This document shows, piece after piece, positions 694 to 41,638 of a DNA stretch of 41,673 nt. Below the pieces are notes generated by a model. That model saw nothing but the letters and a program-made list of their open reading frames with translations. It was not told the DNA's origin and searched no databases. Both the position numbers and the translations under genes were made by a program. The DNA lies in the IMG/VR virus record IMGVR_UViG_3300006145_000006, positions 66,480 through 108,152 of that record; one strand, given 5' to 3'. Source of the DNA: a virus (taxonomy: Duplodnaviria > Heunggongvirae > Uroviricota > Caudoviricetes). Within the stretch, counting starts at the first letter, position 1, and every line of letters starts with the position of its first letter.

Positions 694-730
694 GTCTCTT
701 TTCCTTTCTATTCACCATAAAAGTACAATT

Positions 731-1225
731 TTATGCCCAAAACCCAACTGTCCAATTTTGTAAGTATCCATTCTCATCAAAGTTACACATTGTTACATGC
801 CCGTTTTCAAACCTGCGAACAATCACATCCGAAGAATCAATTTCTCCCTGTGCGATATGAATACCAAACCAATTCACTATTGCCTCACTGTGAGTTTCAA
901 TCCAAAGATTCGCATTACGGGATCGCACTAGTTCGACCACACCTGCAATAACTTTTTTCTGAACTCTCGGATGCAAATCGTTTTCTGGGTGAATCAGCGC
1001 AATATCTAACCCCTCGCACTTCAGCATTTCATAGACTGACCATAGGATGGGAGCGCCAGAACCATTCCCACTCGGATATCCGCAACACCTTTCTACTAAA
1101 TCCAAAAACCCTTTGTCGCTTCGGTCCGGGGGCGAAGGGTTGCAGTACAAGCACCTAGGAATTGCACTGAGATATTTGCTCTTCCCTGATCCGTTTTCTC
1201 CAACCAAAATTTCAATCTTACTCAC
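731..1225 (-). CDS. Miniature ABC-type (AAA_15/AAA_21-like) ATPase with DUF3696-like C-terminus and degenerate Walker B
   Basis: Walker A GENGSGKS, D-loop-like PENDLHP, H-loop ETHS, C-terminal FDENGYLQNWTVGFW. Only 164 aa. Confidence 0.7.
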   Translation of the reverse strand: MSKIEILVGENGSGKSKYLSAIPRCLYCNPSPPDRSDKGFLDLVERCCGYPSGNGSGAPILWSVYEMLKCEGLDIALIHPENDLHPRVQKKVIAGVVELVRSRNANLWIETHSEAIVNWFGIHIAQGEIDSSDVIVRRFENGHVTMCNFDENGYLQNWTVGFWA

Positions 1226-1262
1226 AACATCACCTTCATTTTGGGCTCCAGAATTGATAAAA

Positions 1263-1517
1263 TCATCCTTTTATCTTCTTTAACAGTCTGATCAAAGACT
1301 CGAAGTCTGAATAGCTGTGCGGGTTAATTGGTTCTCCGTTCCACGCAGCGAAGAACACTCTCGCATCGTTTTCCGGTACAAATTCGCATTCTCCGTTCCA
1401 GTCCTCCAAAATATCCTGGATGTATTCCGCCACAATTACATAGATTTCACCATCTACATTCTCTGTGACAATTACAGTCCCATTCCCGTAGAAATTCACT
1501 GTCACGTCTTTGTTCAT
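1263..1517 (-). CDS. Hypothetical acidic protein
   Basis: 84-aa ORF with GAGGTGAGG RBS, co-oriented with neighbours. Confidence 0.75.
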   Translation of the reverse strand: MNKDVTVNFYGNGTVIVTENVDGEIYVIVAEYIQDILEDWNGECEFVPENDARVFFAAWNGEPINPHSYSDFESLIRLLKKIKG

Positions 1518-1534
1518 AGCCTCACCTCATAAAA

Positions 1535-1702
1535 TTACTGTTTTGTCTTGTCCGCAAACCGCTCATTTTCCCAACGTTCACACCAGCGTTGCTGGATAGA
1601 AACAAATTCAAGCCAGCTCCATTCGCCCCCAGCTTTAATGGGAACAATAGAAAACCGCTTAACAACACGGCTGTCACCATAATTAGGATCTCTCCATCGC
1701 AT
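1535..1702 (-). CDS. Small Trp-rich hypothetical protein (55 aa, not in ORF track)
   Basis: Hand translation MRWRDPNYGDSRVVKRFSIVPIK...; TAATG overlap with the upstream stop and a GGAGG RBS. Confidence 0.65.
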   Translation of the reverse strand: MRWRDPNYGDSRVVKRFSIVPIKAGGEWSWLEFVSIQQRWCERWENERFADKTKQ

Positions 1703-1896
1703 TATTGATTACCTCCCGCACTACACCAGAAGTCATCCGGCCCAAAGTGAACACCATCATAGTGTCGATAAATCACACCATCCGGAACATTGCTGGCGTC
1801 GGCCAGCTCCATATAGGACGGGTTCCCTACCATCTCAGTCACATACGCCTGCTTCAGCTCATCAATCTGGTCTCGGCTCAAATCTCGGACTGTCAC
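1702..1896 (-). CDS. Hypothetical protein
   Basis: 64-aa ORF with ATGA overlap to the upstream gene. Confidence 0.75.
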   Translation of the reverse strand: MTVRDLSRDQIDELKQAYVTEMVGNPSYMELADASNVPDGVIYRHYDGVHFGPDDFWCSAGGNQ

Positions 1897-2195
1897 TCGT
1901 CATCAGCCTCCAAATCCACCCACTTCTCAATCGCAGAATAGACGTCACTATCGTCCAACTGCGGAGCCCGCTCGTCAACCCACATCATCTCGTCCAGGAT
2001 GTCTTCTTTGGCCGCAATGATCTCGTTCCGCTTAGACTCATAAGGCTCTTCATCTTCGATATGTAAAAGTAAATCCTGCCACAGTTCTTCCCGTATCATC
2101 ATCGTCTTGAGTACACTGCTCTCGTTCGAGGTCAGACGGATAACCTCGCCGGTGTCCCGCTCGATGACCCACTCGCTGTCAAAATAGACCCCCAT
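1893..2195 (-). CDS. Acidic hypothetical protein, paralog of 2775..3095
   Basis: GGAGG RBS. Shares W..ERDTGE.I.LT.NE and RE.LW motifs with 2775..3095. Confidence 0.8.
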   Translation of the reverse strand: MGVYFDSEWVIERDTGEVIRLTSNESSVLKTMMIREELWQDLLLHIEDEEPYESKRNEIIAAKEDILDEMMWVDERAPQLDDSDVYSAIEKWVDLEADDE

Positions 2196-2228
2196 ATTTC
2201 CTCCAGTAGAACACCAAGGTTGTTAAAT

Positions 2229-2750
2229 TTATTCACCTGAAAACTCACTATAATATTTCTTCCTCATCTCTTTTGCGAAATTCTTGGGCTCATCCACATC
2301 ATCAAATGTTCCTAAGACGCTATTTACACCATTGATTTGCAGTTGAACACACCATTTTTCATTCATCCACGACACATTTCGGTAGCCAGACACCTAGTTC
2401 TTGTTGGGGCCAACTCGATTCATGCTGTTTTCTGACGGCTCAACGACCCTCAGATTTTCTTTTCTGTTATCCATCGTGTCATGGTTAATGTGGTCCACTA
2501 CCAAACCGCGTGGGGGCATCAACAACAAAACGACTAAGCATTAGACTTGTATATCGCTTCCTGCCAAAGTCATTCCGCCCATTGTCAATAAGCATAAATG
2601 GATACATAAACTGGTTGTTGCGATTACCTTTTACTTGAACCGCCTTCCCCAACTTTTGAAATCTTGGCAAGTCTTCTGTATCGATAAGAACTTCGTATCG
2701 TTTCTTACCTGCTATAATTGTTGTCGTGTCCCCATTAACAACGCATTCAT
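2229..2750 (-). pseudogene. Decayed HNH-AP2 homing endonuclease
   Basis: Joined frames give LIDTEDL...LVVDHINHDTMDNRKENLR...SGYRNVSW...WCVQLQING...LGTFDD. There is a frameshift near the start, a +1 frameshift at the G5 run 2512-2516, and an in-frame TAG at 2394-2396. Confidence 0.8.
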
Positions 2751-2774
2751 TAACAAATATGTCTGACTACCTCC

Positions 2775-3095
2775 TCAAGCCGAATGATATACATCCGGGC
2801 AAAACTTCTTGATGGCATCCCATACGATGTCGCCCATCACATCATCGGTGCGATGCTCTTGCTCCATCATGTAGTTCAGGATATTGTCCTTCTGCTTCTC
2901 GATGGCGGCAAACTCGGTGTCGGCGGCAGCATCGTTAGCGTCAATGTCCTCCAGTCGTAAGGAAACCCCTTCCCACAACTTTTCCCTCCGCATGAACCAG
3001 TAGATGTCCTGAATCTCATTGTAGGTCAGAGGAATCTTCTCCCCAGTATCCCGCTCGGCAATCCAAGACATAGGGCCATCACGATAGACAATCAT
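2775..3095 (-). CDS. Acidic hypothetical protein, paralog of 1893..2195
   Basis: 106-aa ORF with ATGA overlap; motif sharing as above. Confidence 0.8.
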   Translation of the reverse strand: MIVYRDGPMSWIAERDTGEKIPLTYNEIQDIYWFMRREKLWEGVSLRLEDIDANDAAADTEFAAIEKQKDNILNYMMEQEHRTDDVMGDIVWDAIKKFCPDVYHSA

Positions 3096-3532
3096 AGGTC
3101 CCCTCCAATTTCAAATCCAGTACCATCTGCAAAATCATCCAGTGCTTCGCTCAAATATTTTTTGTAGATATCATAGTGCTCTTTGCACCACACATGAGTA
3201 TCTATGTAGTTGTGATAGGTCTCCATATCGTCATCTGGGTTCAGCTTTTTCAGAGCAGTCAGCTCCTCCTGCCCAGCCTCATCCAAATCCTCATAGGCCT
3301 TATCGTTTTCAAGCTCCTCGATTCTATCACTTATAGCTTTCTTAATTTGCTCAAACCCATACTCGAAAACCAGCCTCATAACTCCATTTAGACCAACGGA
3401 AGTTACCCACTCTGCCCCATCGCAATATTCAAGAATGTCACAAAAGTCATATCCAACATCGTCAATTAACTTCAAATCTAATGAGCCGCAATTAAGAAGC
3501 TGCATCAGCAAGTCATCTTTTCCTCGAATCAT
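3092..3532 (-). CDS. Highly acidic hypothetical protein
   Basis: Start moved to ATG 3532 behind a GGAGGAG RBS. D/E-rich. Confidence 0.8.
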   Translation of the reverse strand: MIRGKDDLLMQLLNCGSLDLKLIDDVGYDFCDILEYCDGAEWVTSVGLNGVMRLVFEYGFEQIKKAISDRIEELENDKAYEDLDEAGQEELTALKKLNPDDDMETYHNYIDTHVWCKEHYDIYKKYLSEALDDFADGTGFEIGGDL

Positions 3533-3534
3533 AT

Positions 3535-3825
3535 TCAGTACTCCTCCGGAAGCAAAACTGTCGTTGTACTGCGGTCTTCCTCGGTGATGATCCAAATTTT
3601 GTCCTCCGGATCCAGTTCGCTCATGATGTACACACTAAACAGCCTGCCACCATCACTGAGCGCATTCTGATTGCTCTCCCAGTCCTCATCGCAAACATCG
3701 CCCCAGCTTCCTTCTCTGTGCATCTGGAGCGCTTTTTGCACAAGGAACGCATAGGTCGCACTGTCTGCGGCTCTGTCGGCAACACCACAAAGCATAACAA
3801 CCTGACCTATATCAAACAAGGCCAT
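3535..3825 (-). CDS. Conserved plasmid/phage protein (WGDV...WIITE.DRS.TTVLLPEEY family)
   Basis: The C-terminal motif is typical of a widespread family of unknown function on mobile elements. Confidence 0.75.
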   Translation of the reverse strand: MALFDIGQVVMLCGVADRAADSATYAFLVQKALQMHREGSWGDVCDEDWESNQNALSDGGRLFSVYIMSELDPEDKIWIITEEDRSTTTVLLPEEY

Positions 3826-3986
3826 TACTGTTCCTCCTCGTCGTCAAGATAACCTTCATCGCAAAGGTGCCCACGGAACCCATCGCTCAAGAGGCACGTT
3901 CCGTGCCAATCTAAGAAAAGGTTCGCTACAGTTTCACCGTCCAATCCACAGAGAATATCGTACATCTCAAGTTGCTTGCCGTTCAC
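3825..3986 (-). CDS. Small acidic hypothetical protein (53 aa, not in ORF track)
   Basis: Hand translation from GTG: MNGKQLEMYDILCGLDGETVANLFLDWHG...DDEEEQ. Fills the gap with overlaps at both ends. Confidence 0.65.
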   Translation of the reverse strand: MNGKQLEMYDILCGLDGETVANLFLDWHGTCLLSDGFRGHLCDEGYLDDEEEQ

Positions 3987-4621
3987 TGCTCGACCACCTC
4001 CACGACTGTATTATTCTTATCAACCCAGACGTGCTGCGTCCCAAGAACAGCAATGTGATAGCCCTTATTTTTCATTACCCTCTCATGCTCAGCAGCTTCA
4101 TCGTGCCACTGTAGGTCACGGGCCTTATAAAGCGGGATCCAGTGTGACTCATAGAAATCATACCCAGCACCATCGATGCCGAATATATAGCCGTAATCCT
4201 CTGACTCATAGACACGGAAGCCGCAGTCCGCCATCTTCTGGAGACCGTCCATTTTCTCAAGCCAATAATCATCACAAGAATCTCCGAATGTCCACATGGT
4301 TCCCCACATCGGAAGGCCGTCATCTCGTTGGACCTCAAAGTCGGATTTCTCCAGAACGATTTCATCGCCGGAGCCATCCAGCTCAATGCGATAACCATCT
4401 TCGTACTCGCCAACACCGCTTTCCACGATGTACCCATACTCACCGTCGCGAACCCCCTGAAGGACATAGACGTAGTCGTTCTCACCGGGAGGAGTGATTT
4501 CCACAATATCATTGTAGTCGCTTGCAATCATCAGTTTCTTAACAACAGACTGAGGGATACGATCAAAATCGCGCACCAGCTCCTTGGCAGCCTCACGTAC
4601 TGTCATTCCAGGTCGTTTCAT
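3983..4621 (-). CDS. Conserved phage hypothetical protein, acidic
   Basis: ORF with GGGAGA RBS; C-terminal GIDGAGYDFYESHW.PLY motif. Confidence 0.8.
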   Translation of the reverse strand: MKRPGMTVREAAKELVRDFDRIPQSVVKKLMIASDYNDIVEITPPGENDYVYVLQGVRDGEYGYIVESGVGEYEDGYRIELDGSGDEIVLEKSDFEVQRDDGLPMWGTMWTFGDSCDDYWLEKMDGLQKMADCGFRVYESEDYGYIFGIDGAGYDFYESHWIPLYKARDLQWHDEAAEHERVMKNKGYHIAVLGTQHVWVDKNNTVVEVVEQ

Positions 4622-4682
4622 ATTCAATTTCTCCCTTCTAAGTCGGCATCACCCGCCTATTCCCGATAAAATAACGTTTTTA

Positions 4683-5162
4683 TCAATAGGTGACGGTAAA
4701 CATGCCGTCCAGGTGCTTATGGCACATACTTTCATATGTAGATCCCGTCATACCTACATTAACGTCACACTGGACGACATGTTCGCCGTGTAGTGCATAA
4801 AAGTCATCAAAAATATCATCATCCAGGATCGCGTAGTTCTCAACGCCAGGATGTTCGTCAATCCACTTCTTGATCTCTGCTCCTCGATTAGACCCATGCA
4901 GAAGTGGAGTATGGCCCAGAATGTTAATTCCGTCACGCAGTCCTCCATTTCTAAGGCACTCTTGGTAGTTCTCCGCGGCTCGCCACGTGCTAGACACCAC
5001 AATGTCATAACCGTAATTCTGGCAAAACTCCGAAAGCCACTGAACTGCTTGAAAATTGTTGACGGAGCCGTCACGAGGAAAGTTAAAACGGCAACGTTTG
5101 CCATCTGGTGTCCACATTGCCGTGTTTACAACACCGTCGTAGTCAAGAAATACTACGTTCAT
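4683..5162 (-). CDS. HAD-superfamily phosphatase (HAD_SAK_2-like)
   Basis: Motif I FLDYDGV, motif II VVSSTWR, motif IV ILDDD. Confidence 0.85.
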   Translation of the reverse strand: MNVVFLDYDGVVNTAMWTPDGKRCRFNFPRDGSVNNFQAVQWLSEFCQNYGYDIVVSSTWRAAENYQECLRNGGLRDGINILGHTPLLHGSNRGAEIKKWIDEHPGVENYAILDDDIFDDFYALHGEHVVQCDVNVGMTGSTYESMCHKHLDGMFTVTY

Positions 5163-5197
5163 TATTTATCGCCATCCAATCTCATAAAAGAGTGCTT

Positions 5198-5761
5198 TTA
5201 TTGACCCTCGCAAACAATCTCATAGTCTCCGGACGAGACCTTCTTCCGCATATCTCTAATTGAGGAATACCACACAAATGTTTCCCCTGGCAATGTTATT
5301 TCGTACCCATTTTCAACCTTTTCGGCATGATAGATGGAACCTTTCACAAGCACATTTATGTGAGTTATAAAAGAAAATTTTTCTGGCAACATCGTCATTT
5401 CCTCACATAAATCGATTTTGCTTTGCTCCAAAAGCTCATCCGTAAAACCATTAACATATCCGTCATCGTCCCGCACCTGCACAAGAGCAAACATTGCACA
5501 GATTTTCTCCGCGGTGCTACTTGCCGTTTTCCCGTACTCCTTCAGTTCCCACAAAACAAAGCTCGGCTTCTTGACGCCGTCGATGTAGTCCGCAAGTGCA
5601 TCGTATAGGATTTCATCCAGCATTCGAGGCGTGTAGTTCTTCCACGGATAAGTACACTCTTTCCCCATGTACCGCTTAATGGAGTAAATCGGATCCCCCT
5701 TGTAGCCATATTTGTCGTTTCCCTTGCAGCACATGATGATGTTACAGGTTCGTTGCTCCAT
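5198..5761 (-). CDS. Hypothetical protein, possibly a two-part fusion
   Basis: ORF with GAGGTGA RBS. There is an internal GAGGAA-ATG and a degenerate palindrome copy at 5367-5384. Confidence 0.75.
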   Translation of the reverse strand: MEQRTCNIIMCCKGNDKYGYKGDPIYSIKRYMGKECTYPWKNYTPRMLDEILYDALADYIDGVKKPSFVLWELKEYGKTASSTAEKICAMFALVQVRDDDGYVNGFTDELLEQSKIDLCEEMTMLPEKFSFITHINVLVKGSIYHAEKVENGYEITLPGETFVWYSSIRDMRKKVSSGDYEIVCEGQ

Positions 5762-5796
5762 GTGATTCACCTCATGAAATAGTGGTTCTATCAGGA

Positions 5797-5966
5797 TCAG
5801 TTTCCAAAATAGTAGTGCAACCAGTCGCTCACAGCATCCATAACGCTCTTGCGGAGTTCGTTTGGATTATATCTATAATCGAAAAAATAGAGCCGTCATG
5901 GGGCTGGATTATAATCGTTCTTGTATCGGCATTAAGTTCTATAGAAAATTTGATTTTGTTGCCCAT
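5797..5966 (-). pseudogene. Small AT-rich ORF with a probable 1-nt deletion in a T6 run
   Basis: GGAGG-ATG at 5966 gives 45 aa. One extra T at 5882-5887 would give a 56-aa ORF ending YRYNPNELRKSVMDAVSDWLHYYFGN just before the next junction motif. Confidence 0.4.
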
Positions 5967-5985
5967 TTAGAATGACCTCCTATGG

Positions 5986-6294
5986 TCAATACTCTGTAGG
6001 ATCAGTCTCTGTCTCATCTGCCACATATACATCCAGACACACATAGTCAGTATCCGGAACGTCCGCCTTCTCAATAGCAAGAATCTTCTTTGCCAAGGTA
6101 CGAGACGGAATAAAAGTGCAATCCACATCAGGAATCATTGAGATTCCCATATCTCTGTCATCATGGACATTTACGTTATATTTCCCTGAGTCCATACGCA
6201 GCATATATACCAGCTCATTAACGGAAAGCTGAACACTCCGTTTAAACATCGGATGCTTGTCCAAAAGTTCGTTCATCTTATCTGTGAATTTCAT
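5986..6294 (-). CDS. Hypothetical protein
   Basis: 102-aa ORF with GGAGG RBS. Confidence 0.8.
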   Translation of the reverse strand: MKFTDKMNELLDKHPMFKRSVQLSVNELVYMLRMDSGKYNVNVHDDRDMGISMIPDVDCTFIPSRTLAKKILAIEKADVPDTDYVCLDVYVADETETDPTEY

Positions 6295-6314
6295 ACACTA
6301 ACCTCCTTCAGTGC

Positions 6315-6716
6315 TCAAAATGCCTGATGGTCAATGTCGTACACCATAGCAGAGACGCTGTCCATTTCAACGCGAACCCTACTCTCGCCACCACCGATCC
6401 AATGGACAATCACAAGCCTCCTGTCCGGCGTCAGCTCCATGCTCTCAACGCCCTTGCCCTCACCATGGGCACGGACATCCGGGTCAGCATAAAGCTCTCC
6501 ATACTCTCGGATAAACCGCTCAGCATAGGTTTCCTTACGGTAAACCTGTTCGCTGATTTTAGCGTAAGCACTATTGAACGCTCCAGCGTTTTCCCTCATA
6601 CTCTCCGCAAGTTCATCGTCGCTTTCGTACTTCTCCGCATAGACCTGATCGTCAATGGATAGTTCCAAAGCCTGCAACACAGTGAGCCACTCTTCTTTTG
6701 TCAGGTTGATTTTCAT
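6315..6716 (-). CDS. Hypothetical protein
   Basis: 133-aa ORF with GGAGGAG RBS. Confidence 0.8.
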   Translation of the reverse strand: MKINLTKEEWLTVLQALELSIDDQVYAEKYESDDELAESMRENAGAFNSAYAKISEQVYRKETYAERFIREYGELYADPDVRAHGEGKGVESMELTPDRRLVIVHWIGGGESRVRVEMDSVSAMVYDIDHQAF

Positions 6717-6731
6717 AGACGTTCTCCTCCA

Positions 6732-6884
6732 TTACACAATTTCAACTCTGGCTCCCCAGGCATCGTATGTATCAAGGTTGTTGCAGGCCCAGCTCAACGC
6801 CTCCCCATAGCTCAGGAATGGGCGGGTTATCCGGCGGATTTCATAATGGCTTTCATTCACAAAGACAATAGTGTACCTATTCAA
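6732..6884 (-). CDS. Small hypothetical protein (50 aa, TTG start, not in ORF track)
   Basis: GGGGAGG RBS; MNRYTIVFVNESHYEIRRITRPFLSYGEALSWA... Confidence 0.6.
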   Translation of the reverse strand: MNRYTIVFVNESHYEIRRITRPFLSYGEALSWACNNLDTYDAWGARVEIV

Positions 6885-7209
6885 CGGAGTTTACCTCCCC
6901 GGTGATCATCATCGAAAAAATATCGCGCAATTCACTTTTTGCGTGCCTTTCGCACGCTTTGAGCGTCTGCACCATTTCTCTATTGGTTGCATTGCGGGAA
7001 ACCGCTTTTCGATATTCCGCGGCATAGCCAGAACTGGAATCAAAAGAAAAGCACCCAGACTTTTCATAAAGAAAGTCAAAGAGTTCCTCCACCCTGGCGC
7101 ACTTCCAAGGGTGTTGGTTCTTGTGTGTAACCGTCCAGTCAAATTCCTTGACAGCCTTGATACACTCGTCAATCGCCTTGTAGCTGTATGTGGCTATGCC
7201 GGCTGACAT
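6877..7209 (-). CDS. Hypothetical protein
   Basis: Start moved to ATG 7209 (MSAGIATY) behind a GGAGG RBS. Confidence 0.75.
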   Translation of the reverse strand: MSAGIATYSYKAIDECIKAVKEFDWTVTHKNQHPWKCARVEELFDFLYEKSGCFSFDSSSGYAAEYRKAVSRNATNREMVQTLKACERHAKSELRDIFSMMITGEVNSVE

Positions 7210-7361
7210 ACAAACTGCCCCTCCTTCTGCCAATACTCCTCTCGGTAGCGGCGCATGGCCTCCTTCTTGGTGTAGTCGTAATACTGTTTCACCCCAAGGA
7301 GGCCATACACCACCCAGGCACCGTGGACGTTCTTCTCAACGAAATAGATACAGGACTTCAT
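7194..7361 (-). CDS. Small hypothetical protein (55 aa, not in ORF track)
   Basis: AAAGGAG RBS; MKSCIYFVEKNVHGAWVVYGLLGVKQYYDYTKKEAMRRY... Confidence 0.7.
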   Translation of the reverse strand: MKSCIYFVEKNVHGAWVVYGLLGVKQYYDYTKKEAMRRYREEYWQKEGQFVCQPA

Positions 7362-7391
7362 TCCGTCTCTCCTTTCAATGAAACCGCAGTT

Positions 7392-8318
7392 TTATCTGGT
7401 CTTTGTGGGATATGTATAATGGGAAGTCACAACTAGTTTGGCCTCGCCTTCCTCATAATCCCCGCCTTCAATGGCCTCTGTAAGGCCCGCAATCGAGCCC
7501 GCAATGCCGTTAGCAAAAATGTCAGAACCGTAAAAGCCCCAGCATGAATCAACTTCCTCCCAGGTGCTGTCATCATCCTCGGCCTCTGTATCGGCTTTCT
7601 TGAGGAGAGTGAACCCATACACATCGCCGGTGAGATACTGGTCGTATTCTTTAACCTCGGCCTCCATAAGCCGGGTTGCACACTCCCTCCAGTCGTTCTC
7701 ACTGTAGCCGATTTCTTTGATGACATTATCCTTCGTGGTATAAATCCATCCAACCTGCCCACTATCCCAACAGTCAGCAAATTGACCTCTCCTCACTCCA
7801 CAGGACATCGTGATACCGCTATGATCATATAGCCAGAGCGGGAGCCATATCGCATAGGGCTCCATCAATGTCATACAATGCCCGATAGTCAAATCGTCCA
7901 GCAGGTAGTACACGGCGGTGTCTTCGCTAACCTCTTCATACTCCAGGCATTCCTCCGGCTCCCCATCTCCGATAGGGCTTCTCCACTGACAGATTTCGTA
8001 GATGTTTACCAGATTGTCATGCCCCTCGCATTTTTCGATACGGATACCGGTGAGCTTCCCAGCTTTCGCCGCAACCATAACCTCGCTTTCAGGCACATTC
8101 TCTCGGACGAGTCTTTGCCAAAATTCCTCCGGGGTATCATCCCCAACGTCATCACCGAGCCGATAATGTCGATGCCAACACGCCATATAGGTTCCTGTGT
8201 GATCCCAGTCAGTCCTTGGATTCATCGGGTCATCGTCATGTTGAACATGGAGGCAAAACTGGCCGCCCTCATGCTCGAACTTCACGGTGTCATTGTCGTA
8301 CATTCTGAACTCCATCAC
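7392..8318 (-). CDS. Conserved acidic phage early protein (YDHSG...WDSGQVG...DSCWGFYG family)
   Basis: 308 aa, strongly acidic, with recognisable family motifs. Function unknown. Confidence 0.8.
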   Translation of the reverse strand: MMEFRMYDNDTVKFEHEGGQFCLHVQHDDDPMNPRTDWDHTGTYMACWHRHYRLGDDVGDDTPEEFWQRLVRENVPESEVMVAAKAGKLTGIRIEKCEGHDNLVNIYEICQWRSPIGDGEPEECLEYEEVSEDTAVYYLLDDLTIGHCMTLMEPYAIWLPLWLYDHSGITMSCGVRRGQFADCWDSGQVGWIYTTKDNVIKEIGYSENDWRECATRLMEAEVKEYDQYLTGDVYGFTLLKKADTEAEDDDSTWEEVDSCWGFYGSDIFANGIAGSIAGLTEAIEGGDYEEGEAKLVVTSHYTYPTKTR

Positions 8319-8356
8319 AGCTTCCCCTTCTTATGAAATGACCGTTTTATGTAGTT

Positions 8357-8833
8357 TTATATGTCTCCAAAATAAACAGACAAAGGGATACTCAAAATTT
8401 CTTGCTCGTGTTGATTGAGTATCAGGCAGCACAACTTGTATGCCTCCTTATCTGCTCCAACCTCGCTATTATCTTCCCTCTGCTTGATTGCCATATAGTG
8501 TCCCAGTTCATGGGCCAACACCCAAGGATCATTTTCAAGCTTCTCCAAGATTTCAATTTTGGCATCGTCAAGAATCAGACGTCCAGCTCTGGAGTGATAC
8601 AGAATCCTCCCGGCCGCATCTCCAAGCACCTTGTGATATGACACCTCAATGCCGAGCTGAGAACACAGAACCTTAAGAGAGCTGGTCAACCTTGTCTCGG
8701 TTTCTGCCCTCTCCTTGCCCCGTTCCTTCATTTCTTTATCGACCTTCCAGTTGATAATGAGAATCGACACAACCATAGCGATAAGAAAACTCACGAACCC
8801 GGCAAAGAGTATCAAAATCACTTCCCTTTCCAT
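8357..8833 (-). CDS. Membrane-anchored HExxH zinc metallopeptidase (ImmA/IrrE, Peptidase_M78-like)
   Basis: N-terminal hydrophobic helix; VLAHELGH motif and a downstream E..AD..A motif. Confidence 0.7.
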   Translation of the reverse strand: MEREVILILFAGFVSFLIAMVVSILIINWKVDKEMKERGKERAETETRLTSSLKVLCSQLGIEVSYHKVLGDAAGRILYHSRAGRLILDDAKIEILEKLENDPWVLAHELGHYMAIKQREDNSEVGADKEAYKLCCLILNQHEQEILSIPLSVYFGDI

Positions 8834-8858
8834 ATTTTCACCCCATAAAATGTCTGTT

Positions 8859-9149
8859 TTACTTGCTCTCGAAAACTTTCATAGCATCAATGTGCGCCTT
8901 GGCCTCGGACAAAGTGCATCCAGTCTGCTCACGATACAGAACGCAGGCATTCACGGTATTGCCGGCGGCAACCAGTTCCTGGACGGTCGGATGACACTCA
9001 ATCGCCCTTCCACTAACAGACAACCCCCGCAAAAACTCGGAGTAAAGCTCAGGAGCTTTGTCACACTCGATCCCCGTCGTGATCTGAAATGCCATAAGAA
9101 CATAGTTGCCCCTGACGATGTCACCGTTAGAAAGTTTGTAAAATTCCAT
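8859..9149 (-). CDS. Protein with a ribosomal L7/L12 C-terminal-like motif
   Basis: ELVAAGNTVNACVLYREQTGCTLSEAKAHIDAM fits the L..G..i.Aik.yRe.tg.gL.EAK..vd pattern. Confidence 0.6.
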   Translation of the reverse strand: MEFYKLSNGDIVRGNYVLMAFQITTGIECDKAPELYSEFLRGLSVSGRAIECHPTVQELVAAGNTVNACVLYREQTGCTLSEAKAHIDAMKVFESK

Positions 9150-9190
9150 AAAGCTCCCTCCAAAGTTGATAGAATCGCGGTTTACCTGGC

Positions 9191-9385
9191 TTACTTGCGC
9201 TCGTACTTAGTCCCCGTCCAGTCAAAAGCCCGGATAATATACCCGGAAATGCACTGGAGAATTTCATCATCGTTCTCTCGGATAAACCGATCCATGTCCA
9301 CCGTCTTATGGTCGTGCTCAAAATCCTCGATGAAGCGCATAACTTCCTCCAGCGTAATGTCGCTACGCTTGCAGGCGGACACCAC
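9191..9385 (-). CDS. Hypothetical protein
   Basis: 64-aa ORF in the operon. Confidence 0.65.
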   Translation of the reverse strand: MVSACKRSDITLEEVMRFIEDFEHDHKTVDMDRFIRENDDEILQCISGYIIRAFDWTGTKYERK

Positions 9386-9617
9386 CCCGCCTGGTAGGCC
9401 GTGGGCGCTTATACGGGCTACATCCTTTGACTCGCCAATTTAGTCGTTTTGCGTTTGACATTAGGCCGTTGGGGTTTGCCTTCTTGACTTGCTCGGCCTG
9501 GCTCTTGGTCTGCTCGCTATAGTTGGCATATTTCTGACAATCACTATGGCATCTATGTACGCCAGTACTATCTGTCCTGACATATCGATCCGCGCAGCCA
9601 TTACATGGACAGTTCAT
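9363..9617 (-). CDS. Small Cys-rich phage protein (CPCxGC..R..CHS.C.KY type)
   Basis: MNCPCNGCADR...CHSDCQKY. Confidence 0.75.
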   Translation of the reverse strand: MNCPCNGCADRYVRTDSTGVHRCHSDCQKYANYSEQTKSQAEQVKKANPNGLMSNAKRLNWRVKGCSPYKRPRPTRRGGVRLQA

Positions 9618-9619
9618 TA

Positions 9620-9910
9620 TCAGCACCGCCCATCTGCCCGGAGCAACGAGACGGCAAACCTGGCCTGCTCCATTGGGCAGTTGTTATTCTTGGCATAGAG
9701 CACAGCAGCATCTTCGTGCATTCCGTTTGCACACAACTCGCTCACCGTGCTGAACGGCATTTTTTCAAGACCTCCCAGCTCCGCCGCCAGTTTTGCCCGA
9801 TACTGCTTGGAACTCAATCCCGGGTTCTTTTGCTTGGCAATCAAAAATCCCCGGAGATTTAGCTCTCTGTCAGTGTAGATTTTGCCATTACCACTCTTGT
9901 AGAGACACAT
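9620..9910 (-). CDS. Paralog of 8859..9149 with a divergent L7/L12-CTD-like motif
   Basis: Start at ATG 9910 behind AAAGGGGG. Shares the YK..NG.I N-terminus and TV.EL.A.G....A.VLY.....C....A C-terminus. Confidence 0.7.
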   Translation of the reverse strand: MCLYKSGNGKIYTDRELNLRGFLIAKQKNPGLSSKQYRAKLAAELGGLEKMPFSTVSELCANGMHEDAAVLYAKNNNCPMEQARFAVSLLRADGRC

Positions 9911-9944
9911 GTGTCTCGCCCCCTTTATTTTGTTTTGCGTATTG

Positions 9945-9973
9945 ATAATACCATACGCAAATATTAAAGTCAA
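9945..9973 (-). promoter_or_regulatory. sigmaA-type internal promoter with an overlapping inverted repeat
   Basis: TTGACT-17-TATTAT on the minus strand. TTTGCGTAT/ATACGCAAA arms flank the -10. Confidence 0.7.
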
Positions 9974-10137
9974 TAGGAATTTTCATTCTCTTGCATCATG
10001 GGTAATGTATCGATCCAGTCATTGAGCCATTTCCAATGAGGGAAAATAAGATCGGACACAAGACCCAGGATGCCGAAGCCGAAGAAGATAACCCCTCCGG
10101 CTCCGGCAACAAAGATGATTCGCTCTAGCGCACTCAT
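9970..10137 (-). CDS. Small membrane protein (55 aa, not in ORF track)
   Basis: MSALERIIFVAGAGGVIFFGFGILGLVSDLIFPHWKW...; one predicted TM helix; overlaps the upstream stop. Confidence 0.7.
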   Translation of the reverse strand: MSALERIIFVAGAGGVIFFGFGILGLVSDLIFPHWKWLNDWIDTLPMMQENENSY

Positions 10138-11123
10138 CACGCCTTTACCATGGTAGGCATGAAGTTATCTTCGGCCACATTGTTATAGGGCATCTTGACA
10201 TCATCCTTAGAGGCTCCACCGCCGGTTACCTTTTTGCGCTCCGGCAAAATGCTTTCCCAATATTTGGTCACAGCCTGCAAATCCCCCTTCGCGTGAGGGA
10301 ATTTGTCGATGGCCTTTGCCTTAATCTGTCGCGGCTCAGTGCCCTGGTTGGCCTTTACAATCTCCCTGCTCACAACCCCAAGGCGGTCTGTGTTGCTGAG
10401 ATAGATATTCCTCAGCGCCTTGATGATGGTCTGATTATAGGCACGGTCAGAGCTATGCCATCCGCTATCCTGGATAACCTTCAAAATCCAGTACAAGGCA
10501 TCCGGCCCGTTCTTTTTGCAAATTTGATAAGCAGATTTGAGGGCAGACAGCCGAGCCGCCCCCTCCTCATTGCCAGGCTTGCACAATACGCGCTGCGGCA
10601 GAGACTCGCATACCCGCAGGATCTCAAAGACCACGGAATCCGCATCCTCCCCACGCTGAACAAGGGCGGCCTTAAAGTCGTCAAAGGCGCTCATCCTCTT
10701 CCTCGGGGCGTTATTCTGCTTGCGGTACTGAGTGGCCTCGTCGGAGAGAGATTTTCCTACATAGATGCGGCAGGGGAGGTCTGTGATCCCAGCCTTCTTG
10801 GCACCCTCTACCCGATGCCACCCATCTGTCACCCAGAACCATCCATCCCGATAAGAGACACTGATGGTTTCACACAAACCCCAGTTCCAATTGGCAGCGA
10901 TATCATTGATAAGAGCCTCATCTGCCGGCAATGTATGATCGCGCTGGTAACCATCCTCCCCATCCTCCACGGCCATGAACGCAATAGGCAAGTCTGCTTC
11001 TAAGATCCCATGGTGCTTTTCTGCGTTTTTTACGAGTAGGTCGCAGGCAGTGCGGCGGACAGCGTCAATGTCTTGGGCGATGGTGACGGGTTCTTTGTTC
11101 TCCTTGTTGTTGAACAGCTTCAT
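10137..11123 (-). CDS. ParB/Srx-like domain protein (DUF6551-like)
   Basis: VSYRDGWFWVTDGWHRV motif (DGxHR) followed by a helical region; 328 aa. Confidence 0.7.
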   Translation of the reverse strand: MKLFNNKENKEPVTIAQDIDAVRRTACDLLVKNAEKHHGILEADLPIAFMAVEDGEDGYQRDHTLPADEALINDIAANWNWGLCETISVSYRDGWFWVTDGWHRVEGAKKAGITDLPCRIYVGKSLSDEATQYRKQNNAPRKRMSAFDDFKAALVQRGEDADSVVFEILRVCESLPQRVLCKPGNEEGAARLSALKSAYQICKKNGPDALYWILKVIQDSGWHSSDRAYNQTIIKALRNIYLSNTDRLGVVSREIVKANQGTEPRQIKAKAIDKFPHAKGDLQAVTKYWESILPERKKVTGGGASKDDVKMPYNNVAEDNFMPTMVKA

Positions 11124-11167
11124 GATTTGTTATCTCCCTTCAAAAATGTGGTTTGGTTATGTAATAA

Positions 11168-11275
11168 TCAGGTCAATCGGTCGTACTTCTCCTCGAAGAA
11201 GTTGTATATGCGGTGGTCCATCTTCTCGCACCACGCAAACAGGTGCATGAGCATGAGGTAAATTTCCTTTCTCAT
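11168..11275 (-). CDS. Small hypothetical protein (35 aa, not in ORF track)
   Basis: GGAGG RBS; MRKEIYLMLMHLFAWCEKMDHRIYNFFEEKYDRLT; ATGA overlap. Confidence 0.6.
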   Translation of the reverse strand: MRKEIYLMLMHLFAWCEKMDHRIYNFFEEKYDRLT

Positions 11276-11622
11276 TGGCATTCCTCCTTTTCGGTGCCAA
11301 CACCCATACAGGAGCTGGCAAGATTGTCAATGTGCGCAGGGTGGATCTCGGACGGCTGGTACACGCCAATAGAATCCAGCTCCTTCGGCTTGGCAACACC
11401 ATCTACACTGGAAGCCCACGACCGTGCCGCAGCACTCACCCGCCCATCCCAGTTGCCAACGGTGTTGACCAGCTCCGCCACGGCCAAGATTGCCTCACGG
11501 TGACCAATCATGCCCCCCAGGATTGAGACGGTTTCCTCCGGCGTGTTATTGCCCTCAAACCGGCTCTTTGTGTACGCCTCCACAAGAGCTTTTTGCCGTG
11601 CCTTGACTGTCTTTTTGTCCAT
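11272..11622 (-). CDS. Hypothetical protein
   Basis: Start moved to ATG 11622 behind GGGAGGAG. Confidence 0.8.
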   Translation of the reverse strand: MDKKTVKARQKALVEAYTKSRFEGNNTPEETVSILGGMIGHREAILAVAELVNTVGNWDGRVSAAARSWASSVDGVAKPKELDSIGVYQPSEIHPAHIDNLASSCMGVGTEKEECQ

Positions 11623-11654
11623 AATGTACTCCTCCCTTTTTGAATTTTGGGCAC

Positions 11655-11690
11655 AAAAATAGACCGCCAAGGCTTACACCTCAGCGGTCT
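11655..11690 (-). terminator. Intrinsic terminator directly upstream of the 11622 gene
   Basis: On the minus strand, AGACCGCTGAGG-TGTAAG-CCTTGGCGGTCT followed by ATTTTT. Confidence 0.7.
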
Positions 11691-11759
11691 GATAAAATTG
11701 ATGTTTTATAAGGTTTGGGGAGGGGCCTATCGCTTGACCCCTCCCCGGCGGGTTTCCCA

Positions 11760-11788
11760 TTGACACATCCCAAAATTCGCCTTATAAT
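11760..11788 (+). promoter_or_regulatory. Consensus sigmaA promoter for the toxin-like peptide
   Basis: TTGACA-17-TATAAT, an exact match. Confidence 0.85.
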
Positions 11789-11876
11789 GACTCTGCGGTT
11801 AACACCTCCCGTACATCAGCAAATACCCTTTACATAGGTCACAGATTCCATGTGACCACGAAAGGAGGTGTCGCCC

Positions 11877-11969
11877 ATAGAGTTCGTCCTACTTAACATT
11901 GCGGCCAGCTTGGTCGCTAATGCGATTTGGGATGGTCTCCGGGCCATGTGGCGTGCTGTAGCACGCTAA
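11877..11969 (+). CDS. Type I toxin-like hydrophobic peptide (30 aa, ATA start)
   Basis: AAAGGAGGTG RBS, then (M)EFVLLNIAASLVANAIWDGLRAMWRAVAR. It has its own promoter, an upstream anti-SD and a downstream hairpin. Confidence 0.65.
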   Translation: MEFVLLNIAASLVANAIWDGLRAMWRAVAR

Positions 11970-11976
11970 TCGCACG

Positions 11977-12003
11977 GAGGCGGGGCGATGAGCGTCCCGC
12001 CTC
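11977..12003 (+). terminator. Hairpin after the toxin-like ORF
   Basis: GAGGCGGGGCG-ATGAG-CGTCCCGCCTC followed by TCGTTT. Confidence 0.6.
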
Positions 12004-12045
12004 TCGTTTCGTCCTCCCGGCTCCTGCACCTGCGGAGGGCGATAT

Positions 12046-12080
12046 AAAACCGCCCAAGGCCGATGGTCTTGGGCGGTTTG
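12046..12080. terminator. Bidirectional terminator downstream of the AAA ATPase gene
   Basis: AAACCGCCCAAG...CTTGGGCGGTTT inverted repeat. Confidence 0.75.
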
Positions 12081-12096
12081 TTGGATGGTATTTGTA

Positions 12097-26018: not shown

Positions 26019-26052
26019 CGAATTTCAATAGCATAGTCAGGAGGTGGTTGTA

Positions 26053-27042
26053 GTGGCACAGAAAAGTCCTTTAATTCGGTTTTATGATGAGGATAAGCTA
26101 AAAAAGATCAACCCGGAGACAATGAAGTTCTGGCAAAAGTACCGCATCGATATGGAACTGCGAGACTTGAGCGAGAAAACGATTGCCGGATACTACAACG
26201 ACCTCCAGCACTGGTGGATCTTCGTCTATGACAATCAGGGCAATCAGTGCGTAACAGATTTGACTGAGGACGACTTGACTGAATTTCTGTATTTTTGCAA
26301 AACTCAGGGCAACAATTCCCGCAGGATGAAGCGGAGGATGTCCTCCATCTCGGCCTTTTATAAGTTCTTGCGAAAGAAGAAGCTCATCAGCGAGAATCCC
26401 ATGGAGTTCATAGATCGCCCAAAGAAGGATGTGGACGTGCTGGTGCAGACTTACCTCACGCCGGAGCAGGTTGGTCAGATGCGTGAGGCACTGTCTTCCA
26501 ATATTGACACGGCCACTACCGACCGGGCTAAGAATGCCGCACTCACTTTACGGGTCTATGCCCTGTTTTCCCTGTCTACGATGGCTCGGGTAACGGCCAT
26601 TAGCAACACCCGATGGGAACAAATCGACCTTGACGAACGAACGGTCAATGAAGTGATTGAGAAAGAGGGCTATATTGTAGACCTTGGGTTCTCCGAGGAG
26701 GTCTCGGGTCTGCTATCCGAGCTGAGACGGTTCCGGCAGGAGCACAACATTGATGATGGTGGGTTCGTGTTCTATTCAGACCACGGAAGTCAAATTGACG
26801 CCATCGATACCGGTTCTCTAAACGAGTGGTGTAAAAAGATTGGGCGCATGATTGATGTTCCCACCCTCCATCCACACGATTTTCGGCACAGCGGGGCAAC
26901 CTTGCTTAAAAACGCTGGCATGAGTCTTGAGGATGTTAGTGCTTTGTTAAACCATGCAGGGACAGATGTTACTAAGAAGTACTACATCAAAGAGGATAAG
27001 AGCAAACTCAAGAAGGCAAAAGACCAGTTTGAAACCTTCTAA
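26053..27042 (+). CDS. Tyrosine recombinase (XerC/D-like) with intact catalytic residues
   Basis: SAM-like N-domain (SS.SAFYKFL), R in MARV, HDFRH, LNH and the C-terminal Y (TKKYY). GTG start behind AGGAGG. Confidence 0.9.
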   Translation: MAQKSPLIRFYDEDKLKKINPETMKFWQKYRIDMELRDLSEKTIAGYYNDLQHWWIFVYDNQGNQCVTDLTEDDLTEFLYFCKTQGNNSRRMKRRMSSISAFYKFLRKKKLISENPMEFIDRPKKDVDVLVQTYLTPEQVGQMREALSSNIDTATTDRAKNAALTLRVYALFSLSTMARVTAISNTRWEQIDLDERTVNEVIEKEGYIVDLGFSEEVSGLLSELRRFRQEHNIDDGGFVFYSDHGSQIDAIDTGSLNEWCKKIGRMIDVPTLHPHDFRHSGATLLKNAGMSLEDVSALLNHAGTDVTKKYYIKEDKSKLKKAKDQFETF

Positions 27043-27047
27043 GCCTG

Positions 27048-27065
27048 ATAAAACCTATATTTTAT
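27048..27065. repeat. Exact ATAAAA-N6-TTTTAT copy directly after the tyrosine recombinase stop
   Basis: ATAAAA CCTATA TTTTAT. Further right-arm copies lie at 39925 (ATGAAA TCAAAA TTCTAT) and 41610 (GTAAAA CCGCTC TTTTAT). Confidence 0.85.
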
Positions 27066-27153
27066 GGTCCTGCCAAGTCGAAGGCTTGCGTTCCTACGCG
27101 GGGTATTGATGTAGGCTTGGTGGGATTATTTTATATTGCCTGGGGGTGAGCTG

Positions 27154-28272
27154 ATGGCTGGACGGCCGGCAGGCTCCAAAAACAAGACGCCCCCTAAAAT
27201 CAATACGGACAACCTCCCCCCTCTTTACAAGTGTACGGAGTGCGGCAAAGTGGTACAGGCCCCGAAAGGGGTCTTTTTCATGTCCAAGCAGTCCGGCATG
27301 TACGACGGGAACGAGGGATATTCCCATCTGTGCGCCGAATGCACCAATAAGCGGTACGAAAACTATAAGGCCAAGCTGAAGGACGAGCGGTTGGCTTTGA
27401 TCCTCACCTGTGCCTCCATCGGCGTCTACTTTTCTGATGAGCTGTACGCCTCCGTGAAGGGGAATGTGGACTCGGTGCGGTTTGGAGATTTTATCAAGGC
27501 CCTGAATGGGACCCAGTACCGCTCCAAGAACTTTGCCACATTTCTCATCAACATCCTGCAAGACCAGGAGCAGCTCAGAGGCGGCTCCGAACTTCGGGAG
27601 GAGCGGGAGACAAAGTGGAAGCAGGCGGACCGCAAGAACAAGAAATATGTACTGGAAACCGTGGGCTATGACCCCTTCAACGATGACTCCTACACCGATG
27701 AGAACCGAAAGTTTCTGTTCAACACCCTGTCCGACTACCTGACCGACGAGGTCATCGAGGATCCCCACAAAATGCAGAGTGTGATCGCCCTGGTGAAGAC
27801 CACCCTCCAAAAGGAGAGCGTGGACAGCATGATAAACCTGGAGCTTCGGAAGGCCCATCCAGATTACGCTACCATCAAGCAGCTTACCGACATCAAGGAC
27901 AAGCTGGGGGCTGACATTATCAAGACGGCCAAGGACAACGGCATTTCCGCCGCCGCAAACGGCAAGTCCGGCAAGAGCAGCAATGCTCTGACGGCCATTA
28001 TGAAGGAGATGGCGGAGAACGGCTTTGAAGAAATCAAGGTCAATGTGATAGATGCTAAGATGTCGTCCTCCTACAAAGAGGTGGCAGAGCAGAACGCCAG
28101 AGCCCTCATCAACGAGCTTGGATTCACCCAGGATGACTATGCCCGTATGCTGGGGGAACAGTCCGAGATGGCCCGCAAGCTCCAGGAGAGTCTGGATAAG
28201 GCCCAGGAGGAGCTACGGCTGGCGAAGAAGGCTCTGAAGGAGGAGCATGAGAAGGGGCGGAGTAAGAAGTGA
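27154..28272 (+). CDS. Zn-finger/coiled-coil protein upstream of terminase (candidate small terminase)
   Basis: GRP AT-hook-like start, CxxC...CxxC, overlap with terL. The function is inferred from synteny only. Confidence 0.5.
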   Translation: MAGRPAGSKNKTPPKINTDNLPPLYKCTECGKVVQAPKGVFFMSKQSGMYDGNEGYSHLCAECTNKRYENYKAKLKDERLALILTCASIGVYFSDELYASVKGNVDSVRFGDFIKALNGTQYRSKNFATFLINILQDQEQLRGGSELREERETKWKQADRKNKKYVLETVGYDPFNDDSYTDENRKFLFNTLSDYLTDEVIEDPHKMQSVIALVKTTLQKESVDSMINLELRKAHPDYATIKQLTDIKDKLGADIIKTAKDNGISAAANGKSGKSSNALTAIMKEMAENGFEEIKVNVIDAKMSSSYKEVAEQNARALINELGFTQDDYARMLGEQSEMARKLQESLDKAQEELRLAKKALKEEHEKGRSKK

Positions 28273-41604: not shown

Positions 41605-41638
41605 AGACGGTAAAACCGCTCTTTTATCAGGTTAACAG

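Follow-up and report, generated by a model that had tools for sequence, protein, structure and literature searches.

A repeated palindromic site at early gene junctions of SPbeta-like phages, a candidate core site for a phage tyrosine recombinase

The phage and its palindromic sites

The window analyzed here, a stretch of 41,673 nucleotides, covers bases 66480-108152 of a 108,152-bp IMG/VR virus record (IMGVR_UViG_3300006145_000006). It contains many copies of the palindrome ATAAAA-N6-TTTTAT, which are found almost exclusively at gene junctions and are, we suggest, candidate core sites for a phage-encoded tyrosine recombinase. The record, which has a 77-bp terminal repeat, is assigned to a distant SPbeta-like temperate phage because it encodes a homolog of YonO together with tape-measure and tail genes, an HU homolog, a DNA polymerase III (Pol III) alpha replicase, and several tyrosine recombinases. 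Integrase genes are present as well. SPbeta and its relatives encode YonO, a single-chain RNA polymerase; the homolog in this phage, a 936-amino acid (aa) open reading frame (ORF) at 20474-23284 on the plus strand (positions are those of the window unless marked as genome), is 43-45% identical to YonO of the SPbeta group and has no match in Pfam. The host is probably an anaerobic Firmicute, because the phage has an nrdD-type gene (NrdD) and strong Shine-Dalgarno sequences. An early block on the minus strand, at approximately 32.6-78.2 kb of the genome, holds replication and accessory genes, including those for DNA polymerase III alpha, a primase-helicase, NrdD, and methyltransferases.

Copies of the palindrome exceed chance expectation. 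In the window, the exact 18-mer occurs six times (717, 1257, 4666, 5184, 11692, and 27048) and was absent from 100 dinucleotide shuffles. The initial annotation, a reading of the sequence that preceded this analysis, had listed five exact copies and judged them to be in excess of chance; all five are confirmed, as is the excess, and the copy at 27048 brings the total to six. Allowing one mismatch yields 12 copies in the window versus 0.12 expected, the additional ones being at 1529, 5367, 7378, 8333, 8845, and 41610. Extending the scan to the whole genome, as the annotation had advised, gave 16 exact 18-mers (0 for a control pattern) and 36 copies with one mismatch or fewer, 29 of which are within the early block. 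Exact copies of the 16-bp core, TAAAA-N6-TTTTA, number 28 in the whole 108-kb genome and nearly all are between co-directional early genes.

At the head of the leftward early block, the exact site at 11692-11709 directly precedes an intrinsic-terminator-like hairpin (11661-11690, minus strand; 13 pairs and a T run), which is followed by a Shine-Dalgarno sequence and an ATG at 11620. A second terminator-like hairpin, at approximately 12045-12085 on the minus strand, is in series with the first and lies ahead of the first leftward early gene; the arrangement hints that early expression needs read-through or antitermination. Farther into the block are three sites with one mismatch. The TAA of the first (8845-8862) is the stop codon of ORF 8859-9149 and the site is upstream of ORF 8357-8833, a member of a PHROG metallo-protease family. 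The second (8333-8350) separates that gene from a 308-aa ORF (7392-8318), and the third (7378-7395) provides the TAA that stops the 308-aa ORF. A two-mismatch copy, ATGAAA..TTCTAT (5774-5791), lies 12 nt upstream of the start of ORF 5198-5770, whose stop codon is the TAA of the exact site at 5184-5201. The latter site is upstream of a HAD gene (ORF 4683-5162, HAD_SAK_2) and the next exact site (4666-4683) is between the HAD gene and ORF 3983-4627. Toward the left edge of the window, a one-mismatch site (1529-1546) lies upstream of ORF 1263-1517, which stops inside the spacer of the exact site at 1257-1274. This site is between ORF 1263-1517 and ORF 731-1225, and ORF 731-1225 in turn ends at the TAA (minus strand) of the exact site at 717-734, with the next gene (16-693) beginning 23 nt on. 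The window edge cuts a further site (1-8), leaving two spacer bases and the right arm TTTTAC (3-8); the full site is at genome 66470-66487, has one mismatch, and accounts for the half-site that had been noticed initially. The sole copy that is not at a junction has one mismatch and is inside ORF 5198-5770 (5367-5384). It may be a chance match or a decayed site.

Two copies in the window are to the right of the early block. The exact site at 27048-27065 is in a rightward late block, 6 bp past the stop codon of a Xer-like recombinase gene. The one-mismatch site at 41610-41627 is within the 77-bp terminal repeat and is followed by a hairpin. A match to the Rfam family DUF3800-VIII RNA (27064-27129, plus strand; 67 bits versus a gathering threshold of 40) begins inside the exact site at 27048-27065 and is just upstream of ORF 27136-28272. 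The Rfam scan had no match on the sites themselves.

Positions of the sites relative to coding sequences were compared across the genome (genes were called with a simple script of our own and the orientation of each site follows the coding strand around it). At 14 or more sites, about half of the copies, the previous gene stops at the TAA of the upstream arm, and for the remaining copies the previous stop is within ∼11 nt upstream of the site or in its spacer. The next start codon is 1-38 nt past the site and, in most cases, a strong Shine-Dalgarno sequence comes immediately after the site. The Shine-Dalgarno sequence begins 0-10 nt past the site or inside it and, in the copy at genome 64483, the spacer TGGAGG is itself a Shine-Dalgarno sequence. 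The last copy in the block (genome 32660), like that at 11692, is followed by a terminator-like hairpin and not immediately by a gene. Across 92 early-block junctions, 14 of 21 with a gap of 31-60 nt have a site and almost none of the overlapping or very short junctions do, although the gene calls underlying these counts are crude. Much of the initial annotation holds up against these patterns: its placement of copies at gene junctions, its reading of the arm TAA as the stop codon of ORFs 731-1225, 5198-5770, 7392-8318, and 8859-9149, its order of site and then ribosome-binding site, and its recognition of five single genes bracketed on both sides (731-1225, AAA_15/AAA_21; 1263-1517; 4683-5162; 7392-8318; and 8357-8833). 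Its proposal that the spacer is polarized does not. Instead, the constraint is symmetric, with A as the first spacer base in 2 of 29 copies and T as the last in 0 of 29 ("not A" and "not T"). The bracketed genes had also been described as promoterless, which was checked by a consensus scan alone; that scan found 32 sigma-70-like matches versus 26.7 expected, none of them tied to sites.

Sequence conservation extends beyond the core and does so on both sides. In this phage, both half-sites read A-C-C-C-n-A-TAAAA, with the possibility that the downstream side includes the complement of a Shine-Dalgarno sequence. In SPbeta, phi3T, and a 136-kb provirus (G004), both half-sites read T-Y-T-n-n-a-TAAAA. 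The outer bases on the downstream side of the SPbeta group thus read A-R-A and are not explicable by a ribosome-binding site. Conservation reaches equally far in both directions, to position -6, and defines a site of ∼28 bp with an 11-6-11 arrangement. Single mismatches in this phage are confined to outer core positions 1, 2, and 15, leaving the inner AAA/TTT invariant.

The two halves do not covary. In the SPbeta group, the -5/+5 pairs C-G, C-A, T-G, and T-A are found 11, 18, 16, and 18 times, respectively (p=0.61), and at every flank position complementary pairs are as frequent as predicted by multiplying the marginal frequencies. A stable RNA hairpin was considered and ruled out, as the 6-pair stem alone has a folding energy of +0.3 kcal/mol and 30-nt sense windows fold at -3.1 kcal/mol versus -1.6 kcal/mol for shuffles, a gain of just 1.5 kcal/mol. 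A depletion of self-complementary spacers, seen in this phage and the SPbeta group, was likewise discarded because it was gone when 141 unique sites were pooled (98 versus 101 expected). Because the halves share their outer bases, are conserved as sequence, and vary independently, the pattern points to a site read as double-stranded DNA by a symmetric protein dimer. The core-site geometry of tyrosine recombinases, inverted arms of ∼11 bp around a center of 6-8 bp, had been invoked from the start and is what was found, with a strict 6-bp spacer and 11-bp arms.

Distribution of the site and homology breakpoints

The element is common to many SPbeta-like phages, but not to all. Exact cores number 34 in SPbeta (AF020713; 1.9 expected from local shuffles), 19 in the provirus G004 (2.3 expected), 17 in Perkons (3.5 expected), 31 in Clostridium phage c-st (8.0 expected), and 30 in phi3T. 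Nine gut-metagenome phages have 12-23 cores versus 1-2 for the control pattern, and a scan of IMG/VR with the extended motif revealed enrichment in several AT-rich phages unrelated to this one. In SPbeta, enrichment is restricted to the 6-bp spacer (other spacer lengths have 0-3 copies) and sites fall between early genes (yop, yoq, yor, and yos), where the site TAA is the annotated stop of nine genes (yoqG, yoqS, yoqY, yorT, mtbP, yorZ, yosC, yosF, and yosR). Conversely, the core is not enriched in relatives G001, G002, G003 (1 copy), G006, and G013, nor in Enterocloster phage CB473P1 and Thomasclavelia phage TR-TP2. The Pol III of G001 is 77% identical to that of this phage, yet the core is not enriched and the G001 orthologs of site-preceded genes have plain ribosome-binding sites without the element. 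G003, a complete genome with a YonO at 48% identity, has a single copy. No other palindrome is prominent in the motif-poor relatives G001, G002, G003, and G006. In a literature check of limited range, the SPbeta review and the papers on the repressor MrpR describe the SPbeta repeated element (SPBRE) and not the palindromic one.

Sites coincide in a number of cases with boundaries of homology between related phages. INPHARED has no close DNA relative of this phage and the extended-motif scan of IMG/VR gave only the unrelated AT-rich phages, and comparisons were made within other lineages. Between the early regions of SPbeta and phi3T, 38 of 47 homology breakpoints are at gene junctions. Breakpoints are found at 11 of 23 site-bearing junctions of SPbeta versus 20 of 89 that are site-free (odds ratio 3.2, p=0.02). 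At the base-pair level, homology at five junctions covers the downstream gene together with the site and its spacer, and the upstream genes are unrelated; at two junctions it covers the upstream gene and extends through all or most of the site. The pair yoqH-yoqI is absent from phi3T and both ends of this difference are in two site copies, at the arm/spacer border. In three related gut phages (G009, G012, and G017), there are at least six independent junctions at which homology extends from the downstream gene through the Shine-Dalgarno sequence and across the entire site before halting exactly at the outer base of the upstream arm. Modules in different contexts between related replicons are therefore evident in SPbeta/phi3T and in gut phages, which are lineages other than that of this phage.

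Identical 16-mers in relatives provide a second view of the same boundaries. Among 35 such sites with at least one homologous flank, 19 keep both flanks; in the other 16, the edge of the site is the point at which one flank, the upstream one in ∼11 cases and the downstream one in 5, has been replaced. Identical 16-mers with both flanks unrelated number nine, versus ∼3.5 expected by chance, and only one case was found in which a conserved flank is joined to a different spacer. The site is kept with its downstream gene about twice as often as with its upstream gene, and breakpoint positions range from the upstream to the downstream edge of the site. The unit of exchange would then consist of site, Shine-Dalgarno sequence, and one or more ORFs, with the TAA of the site predicted to terminate whichever gene falls upstream.

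A second repeated element, AGAATAAAAATAAAATTA, is also present at several SPbeta/phi3T junctions (SPbeta L035, ∼13680 and 32765). In one case, it is just upstream of a good -35/-10 pair and it may be an UP-like element.

The reader of the site and competing explanations

We favor, with a probability of roughly 0.4, an explanation in which the sites are core sites of a phage Xer-like tyrosine recombinase and are comparable to the dif modules of Acinetobacter plasmids, because of the 11-6-11 geometry, the differing spacers, the presence of same-spacer sites in different contexts, and the existence of orphan recombinases. The conserved core would belong to a double-stranded DNA site of ∼28 bp that is read by a protein dimer and is positioned at the 5' edge of gene units, in the order site, Shine-Dalgarno sequence, and ORF, with the TAA often closing the preceding gene. 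The reader would be the product of 26044-27042 in this phage and YopP or YomM in SPbeta. Copies with equal spacers in co-resident related genomes would exchange, or strand exchange would take place at the upstream arm, and either would generate module boundaries. Differing spacers would keep the many copies of one genome from recombining with each other. The system would thereby be a phage counterpart of the plasmid dif modules. The more specific proposal, that the phage encodes a recombination system with 20-35 sites per genome, which share arms and have their own spacers, for programmed exchange with the same site of a co-infecting or resident relative, is doubtful.

Acinetobacter plasmids carry many 28-bp dif sites per replicon, each organized as 11-6-11, that bracket one or few accessory genes (PMC6449649, PMC13141974, PMC7399989). 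The phage sites are similar in being multi-copy and 11-6-11, in defining modules that are beside different neighbors in related replicons, and in that the mechanism is derived mainly from comparative data. They differ in residing on a phage replicon, in having two like arms, as suits a homodimer, in place of XerC and XerD arms in alternating orientation, and in overlapping stop codons and directly preceding ribosome-binding sites. Additionally, the putative enzyme is encoded by the phage and is not the host XerCD.

The best lead for a reader is the group of Xer-like tyrosine recombinases beyond the integrase, which are candidates on the basis of gene content and location. Three tyrosine-recombinase-like genes are present in this phage: a classical integrase (genome 25901-27067, minus strand), a gene for a 352-aa protein with a weak match (genome 60168-61226, minus strand), and the Xer-like gene at 26044-27042 on the plus strand, whose product has Phage_integrase and SAM_1 domains and the R..HxxR..H..Y residues. 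This last protein, the candidate reader, is 57% identical to a protein of c-st and ∼60% identical to homologs in 165 IMG/VR contigs; homologs with 57-62% identity span phages of 26% to 50% GC. A site adjoins the 3' end of a recombinase gene in this phage, in G004 (a YomM-type gene), and in two IMG/VR loci (homologs of the family). All motif-rich genomes examined have at least one Xer-like recombinase besides the integrase.

Two other proteins were evaluated as readers and rejected. A YoqL-like HNH protein (genome 44138-44785) occurs in SPbeta and G004 as well as in this phage, but Perkons and c-st yielded no homolog. HU-like proteins are present in motif-rich and motif-poor phages alike, and the differences in their arms in G001 and G003 are too weak to be informative. 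The HU homolog of this phage (genome 31995-32282, minus strand) is nearer to YonN of SPbeta than to the HU of G001, despite G001 having the closest polymerase. The arm of the HU of G001 (HU at 54103-54429) is without the tip proline and that of G003 (HU at 49620-49940) is divergent; both phages are without the motif.

Several observations weigh against a recombinase as the reader. Relatives G006 and G013 have homologs of the recombinase (62% and 56% identity, respectively), yet show no enrichment of the core, and G008, with a recombinase 59% identical, has five copies versus two for the control. An iterative search had suggested that a single recombinase family is present in all motif-rich phages, but pairwise identities show at least two families with a mutual identity of only 20-27%. 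SPbeta, G004, and Perkons carry the YomM and YopP families, which are 20-27% identical to the window protein, and in YomM and YopP of SPbeta a Lys replaces the second catalytic Arg. Nor does any family track the motif cleanly when every gene of this phage is profiled phyletically across 13 genomes.

The breakpoint evidence has weaknesses of its own. Junctions with a site are modestly enriched for breakpoints in SPbeta/phi3T and show no enrichment in three gut-phage pairs, for which junction-level Fisher tests with crude gene calls were not significant. Exact edges are also expected from any recombination followed by selection because intergenic spaces hold little beyond the site, and all breakpoint evidence comes from other SPbeta-like lineages because no close motif-bearing relative was found. 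The one laboratory hybrid examined, Hyb1phi3Ts-SPbeta (MT366946), has a single crossover within 5.1 kb of identical late-gene DNA; a crossover in identical DNA reflects ordinary homologous recombination and is uninformative on the sites. The alignment of relatives that the initial annotation had called for thus has a mixed outcome, with breakpoints that fall at site edges and a junction-level enrichment that is weak (p=0.02 in one pair and none in three).

A short site of the type read by proteins marks gene borders in a family of large temperate Firmicutes phages, which bears on the old question of phage mosaicism. Susskind and Botstein reportedly put forward a "linker" idea, the alternative being random illegitimate recombination followed by selection. 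The family includes SPbeta and phi3T, both of Bacillus subtilis, for which genetics, chromatin immunoprecipitation (ChIP), and mixed-infection crosses are routine, making the explanations directly testable. If a recombinase reads the site, plasmid dif modules would have their first counterpart in a phage and the orphan Xer-like genes yopP and yomM would gain a function. If a regulator reads it, SPbeta-like phages would have, in addition to MrpR, a second layer of control that extends over the whole genome. Programmed exchange at fixed junctions, if true, would be a built-in engine of phage mosaicism.

The strongest alternative is that the sites are roadblock or silencing operators, at which a dimeric protein bound between genes would damp read-through of the early block in the manner of stoperators. 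The protein could be a small regulator, or a recombinase-fold protein that just binds, like MrpR at SPBRE, and modules would be exchanged passively at the common motif, through microhomology and selection for a site that stays with its gene, much as has been described for PeSL cassettes of T4-type phages (PMC2839356, PMC4122927). We consider this possible but unlikely. It is consistent with half-sites that are symmetric and vary independently, with the spread of 20-35 copies across co-directional early operons, in short intergenic spaces and often overlapping stop codons, and with the temperate lifestyle of the phages. The roughly twofold preference of the site for its downstream gene, the weak junction-level enrichment of breakpoints, and the finding that gut-phage breakpoints are not clearly hotter at site-bearing junctions also fit. 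Precedents are a recombinase-fold repressor in this phage family (PMC10516654) and the stoperators themselves (PMC9283540, PMC6550527).

In Cluster A mycobacteriophages (e.g., L5 and Bxb1), stoperators are asymmetric, orientation-dependent sites of 13-14 bp to which a monomeric repressor binds, and their divergence follows that of the immunity groups (PMC9283540, PMC6550527). The sites described here are like them in that tens of short sites are distributed in short intergenic spaces along the operons of temperate phages. However, they are palindromic, have no repressor linked to them, and have the same core in heteroimmune and very distant phages. SPbeta and phi3T maintain one core although they are heteroimmune, as do phages whose hosts range from Bacillus to Clostridium, whereas stoperators diverge with their repressor (PMC6550527). 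Also arguing against operators are the lack of a conserved candidate protein in the 13-genome profile, an 11-6-11 footprint that is long for a simple helix-turn-helix dimer, and the G001 orthologs that manage without a site. Moreover, SPBRE is the only class of peak for MrpR (YopR) in chromatin affinity purification sequencing (ChAP-seq; PMC10516654). The operator alternative in the initial annotation survives in part: its parallel with SPBRE and MrpR does not amount to identity, and a dimeric DNA-binding reader remains a live rival of the recombinase.

It is improbable that the site acts in mRNA, be it in transcript processing, in coupling or insulating translation, or as a target of an RNA-binding protein. 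Such a role would be in keeping with its location, always inside transcription units and between a stop codon and a Shine-Dalgarno sequence or terminator, with its movement with the downstream gene in the manner of a 5' leader, with the occasional Shine-Dalgarno sequence in the spacer, and with the slightly better folding of sense windows relative to shuffles. But the stem is unstable, there is no compensatory variation in arms or flanks, and the distance to the start codon varies from 1 to 38 nt. A single-stranded reader also has no need for identical, sequence-conserved outer bases on both halves.

An explanation without any reader, in which the site is a self-perpetuating junction sequence that spreads by illegitimate or relaxed-fidelity recombination and is kept for its stop codon and AU-rich unstructured leader, is more improbable still. 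The use of TAA as a stop in about half of the copies here and in nine SPbeta genes, breakpoints in or at either arm, and the origin of the laboratory hybrid by ordinary homologous recombination are compatible with it. It leaves unexplained the strict 6-bp spacing, the lineage-specific symmetric outer arms, and the "not A / not T" rule of the spacer, and homologous exchange through arms of just 5 bp would be very short of sequence. The sites are also distinct from PeSL (promoter-early stem-loop) cassettes of T4-type phages, which consist of a sigma-70 promoter and a terminator stem-loop, with both functions demonstrated (PMC2839356, PMC4122927). As with PeSL cassettes, a repeated intergenic motif precedes small early genes, travels with the following gene, and contains end points of indels and replacements between close relatives. 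The phage site differs in being a 16-28-bp dyad without promoter or terminator, with few copies followed by a hairpin, and in having arms too short for ordinary homologous exchange.

An integron-type system, in which attC-like sites recombine as folded single strands and circular cassettes are inserted and excised, is very unlikely. In integrons, attC sites are long imperfect palindromes of 57-141 bp that are conserved in structure, recombine as single strands at one fixed position, and are accompanied by attI and a common promoter. The phage sites share with attC a location at the ends of gene cassettes and the capacity to overlap stop codons. Single genes are bracketed, and the two ends of one indel map to arm/spacer borders in two copies of the site. 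Unlike attC, the sites are only 16-28 bp and conserved in sequence and not in structure, with no covariation. Neither an attI-like primary site nor a common cassette promoter was seen, the recombinase gene is in the late block, sites are dispersed among essential replication genes across 45 kb, and a conserved flank is joined to a different spacer in one case only. The cassette model of the initial annotation is accordingly retained for its boundaries, which the sites mark at base-pair resolution, and not for integron-type chemistry.

A promoter, whether for the sigma-A holoenzyme of the host or for the YonO RNA polymerase of the phage, is equally unlikely. Many genes do have the element upstream of them, and a YonO homolog is encoded in this genome. 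Nevertheless, a 6-bp gap cannot separate a -35 from a -10 box, and with the Shine-Dalgarno sequence 0-10 nt past the site or inside it, a transcript starting downstream could not carry it. The transcription start mapped for YonO in SPbeta, at AF020713 position 60451 by our own conversion (PMC5467207), has no copy nearby, and G003 has a YonO at 48% identity and one copy only. YonO was dismissed as a reader on these last two grounds. Least credible, and almost certainly wrong, is an SPBRE-type operator of an MrpR-like master repressor: although SPBRE is likewise a repeated element of this phage family and has a reader with a recombinase fold, it is a 15-bp element of different sequence (AAATACAAAAAATATGTATA) with ∼10 copies, in promoters ahead of aimR, yonT, yonX, yopM, yopV, yorE, and yonP, it coexists with 34 palindromic sites in SPbeta, and an iterative search for MrpR has matches in SPbeta, phi3T, Perkons, G004, c-st, and motif-poor G003 and none in this genome, for which reason MrpR was also rejected as the reader.

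Further features of the genome

The early block has three methyltransferase-like genes (genome 33082-33744, 39258-40502, and 43221-43697, all on the minus strand), and the kinds represented are N6_N4_Mtase, SPbeta mtbP-like, and Dam-like. A tRNA-Met gene is also within the block (genome 54327-54401, minus strand). Across the whole genome, a different palindrome, TTGA-N5-TCAA, has 16 copies versus ∼1.7 expected (e.g., at window 22458, 28025, and 39792); the copies are mostly in coding sequence and no shared context was seen among them.

Near the head of the early block, a gene on the minus strand (10137-11123) encodes a ParB-like protein (PHROG ParB-like partition protein; Pfam DUF6551). In SPbeta, the ParB-domain gene yopQ shares an operon with yopP and yopR. 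A perfect TTGACA-17-TATAAT promoter (11760-11788, plus strand) is directed away from the early block and has ∼270 nt without an ORF downstream. The stretch at 11760-12060 on the plus strand has a folding energy of -122 kcal/mol (z = -6 versus shuffles) and no match in Rfam, and may represent a structured non-coding RNA belonging to the control region.

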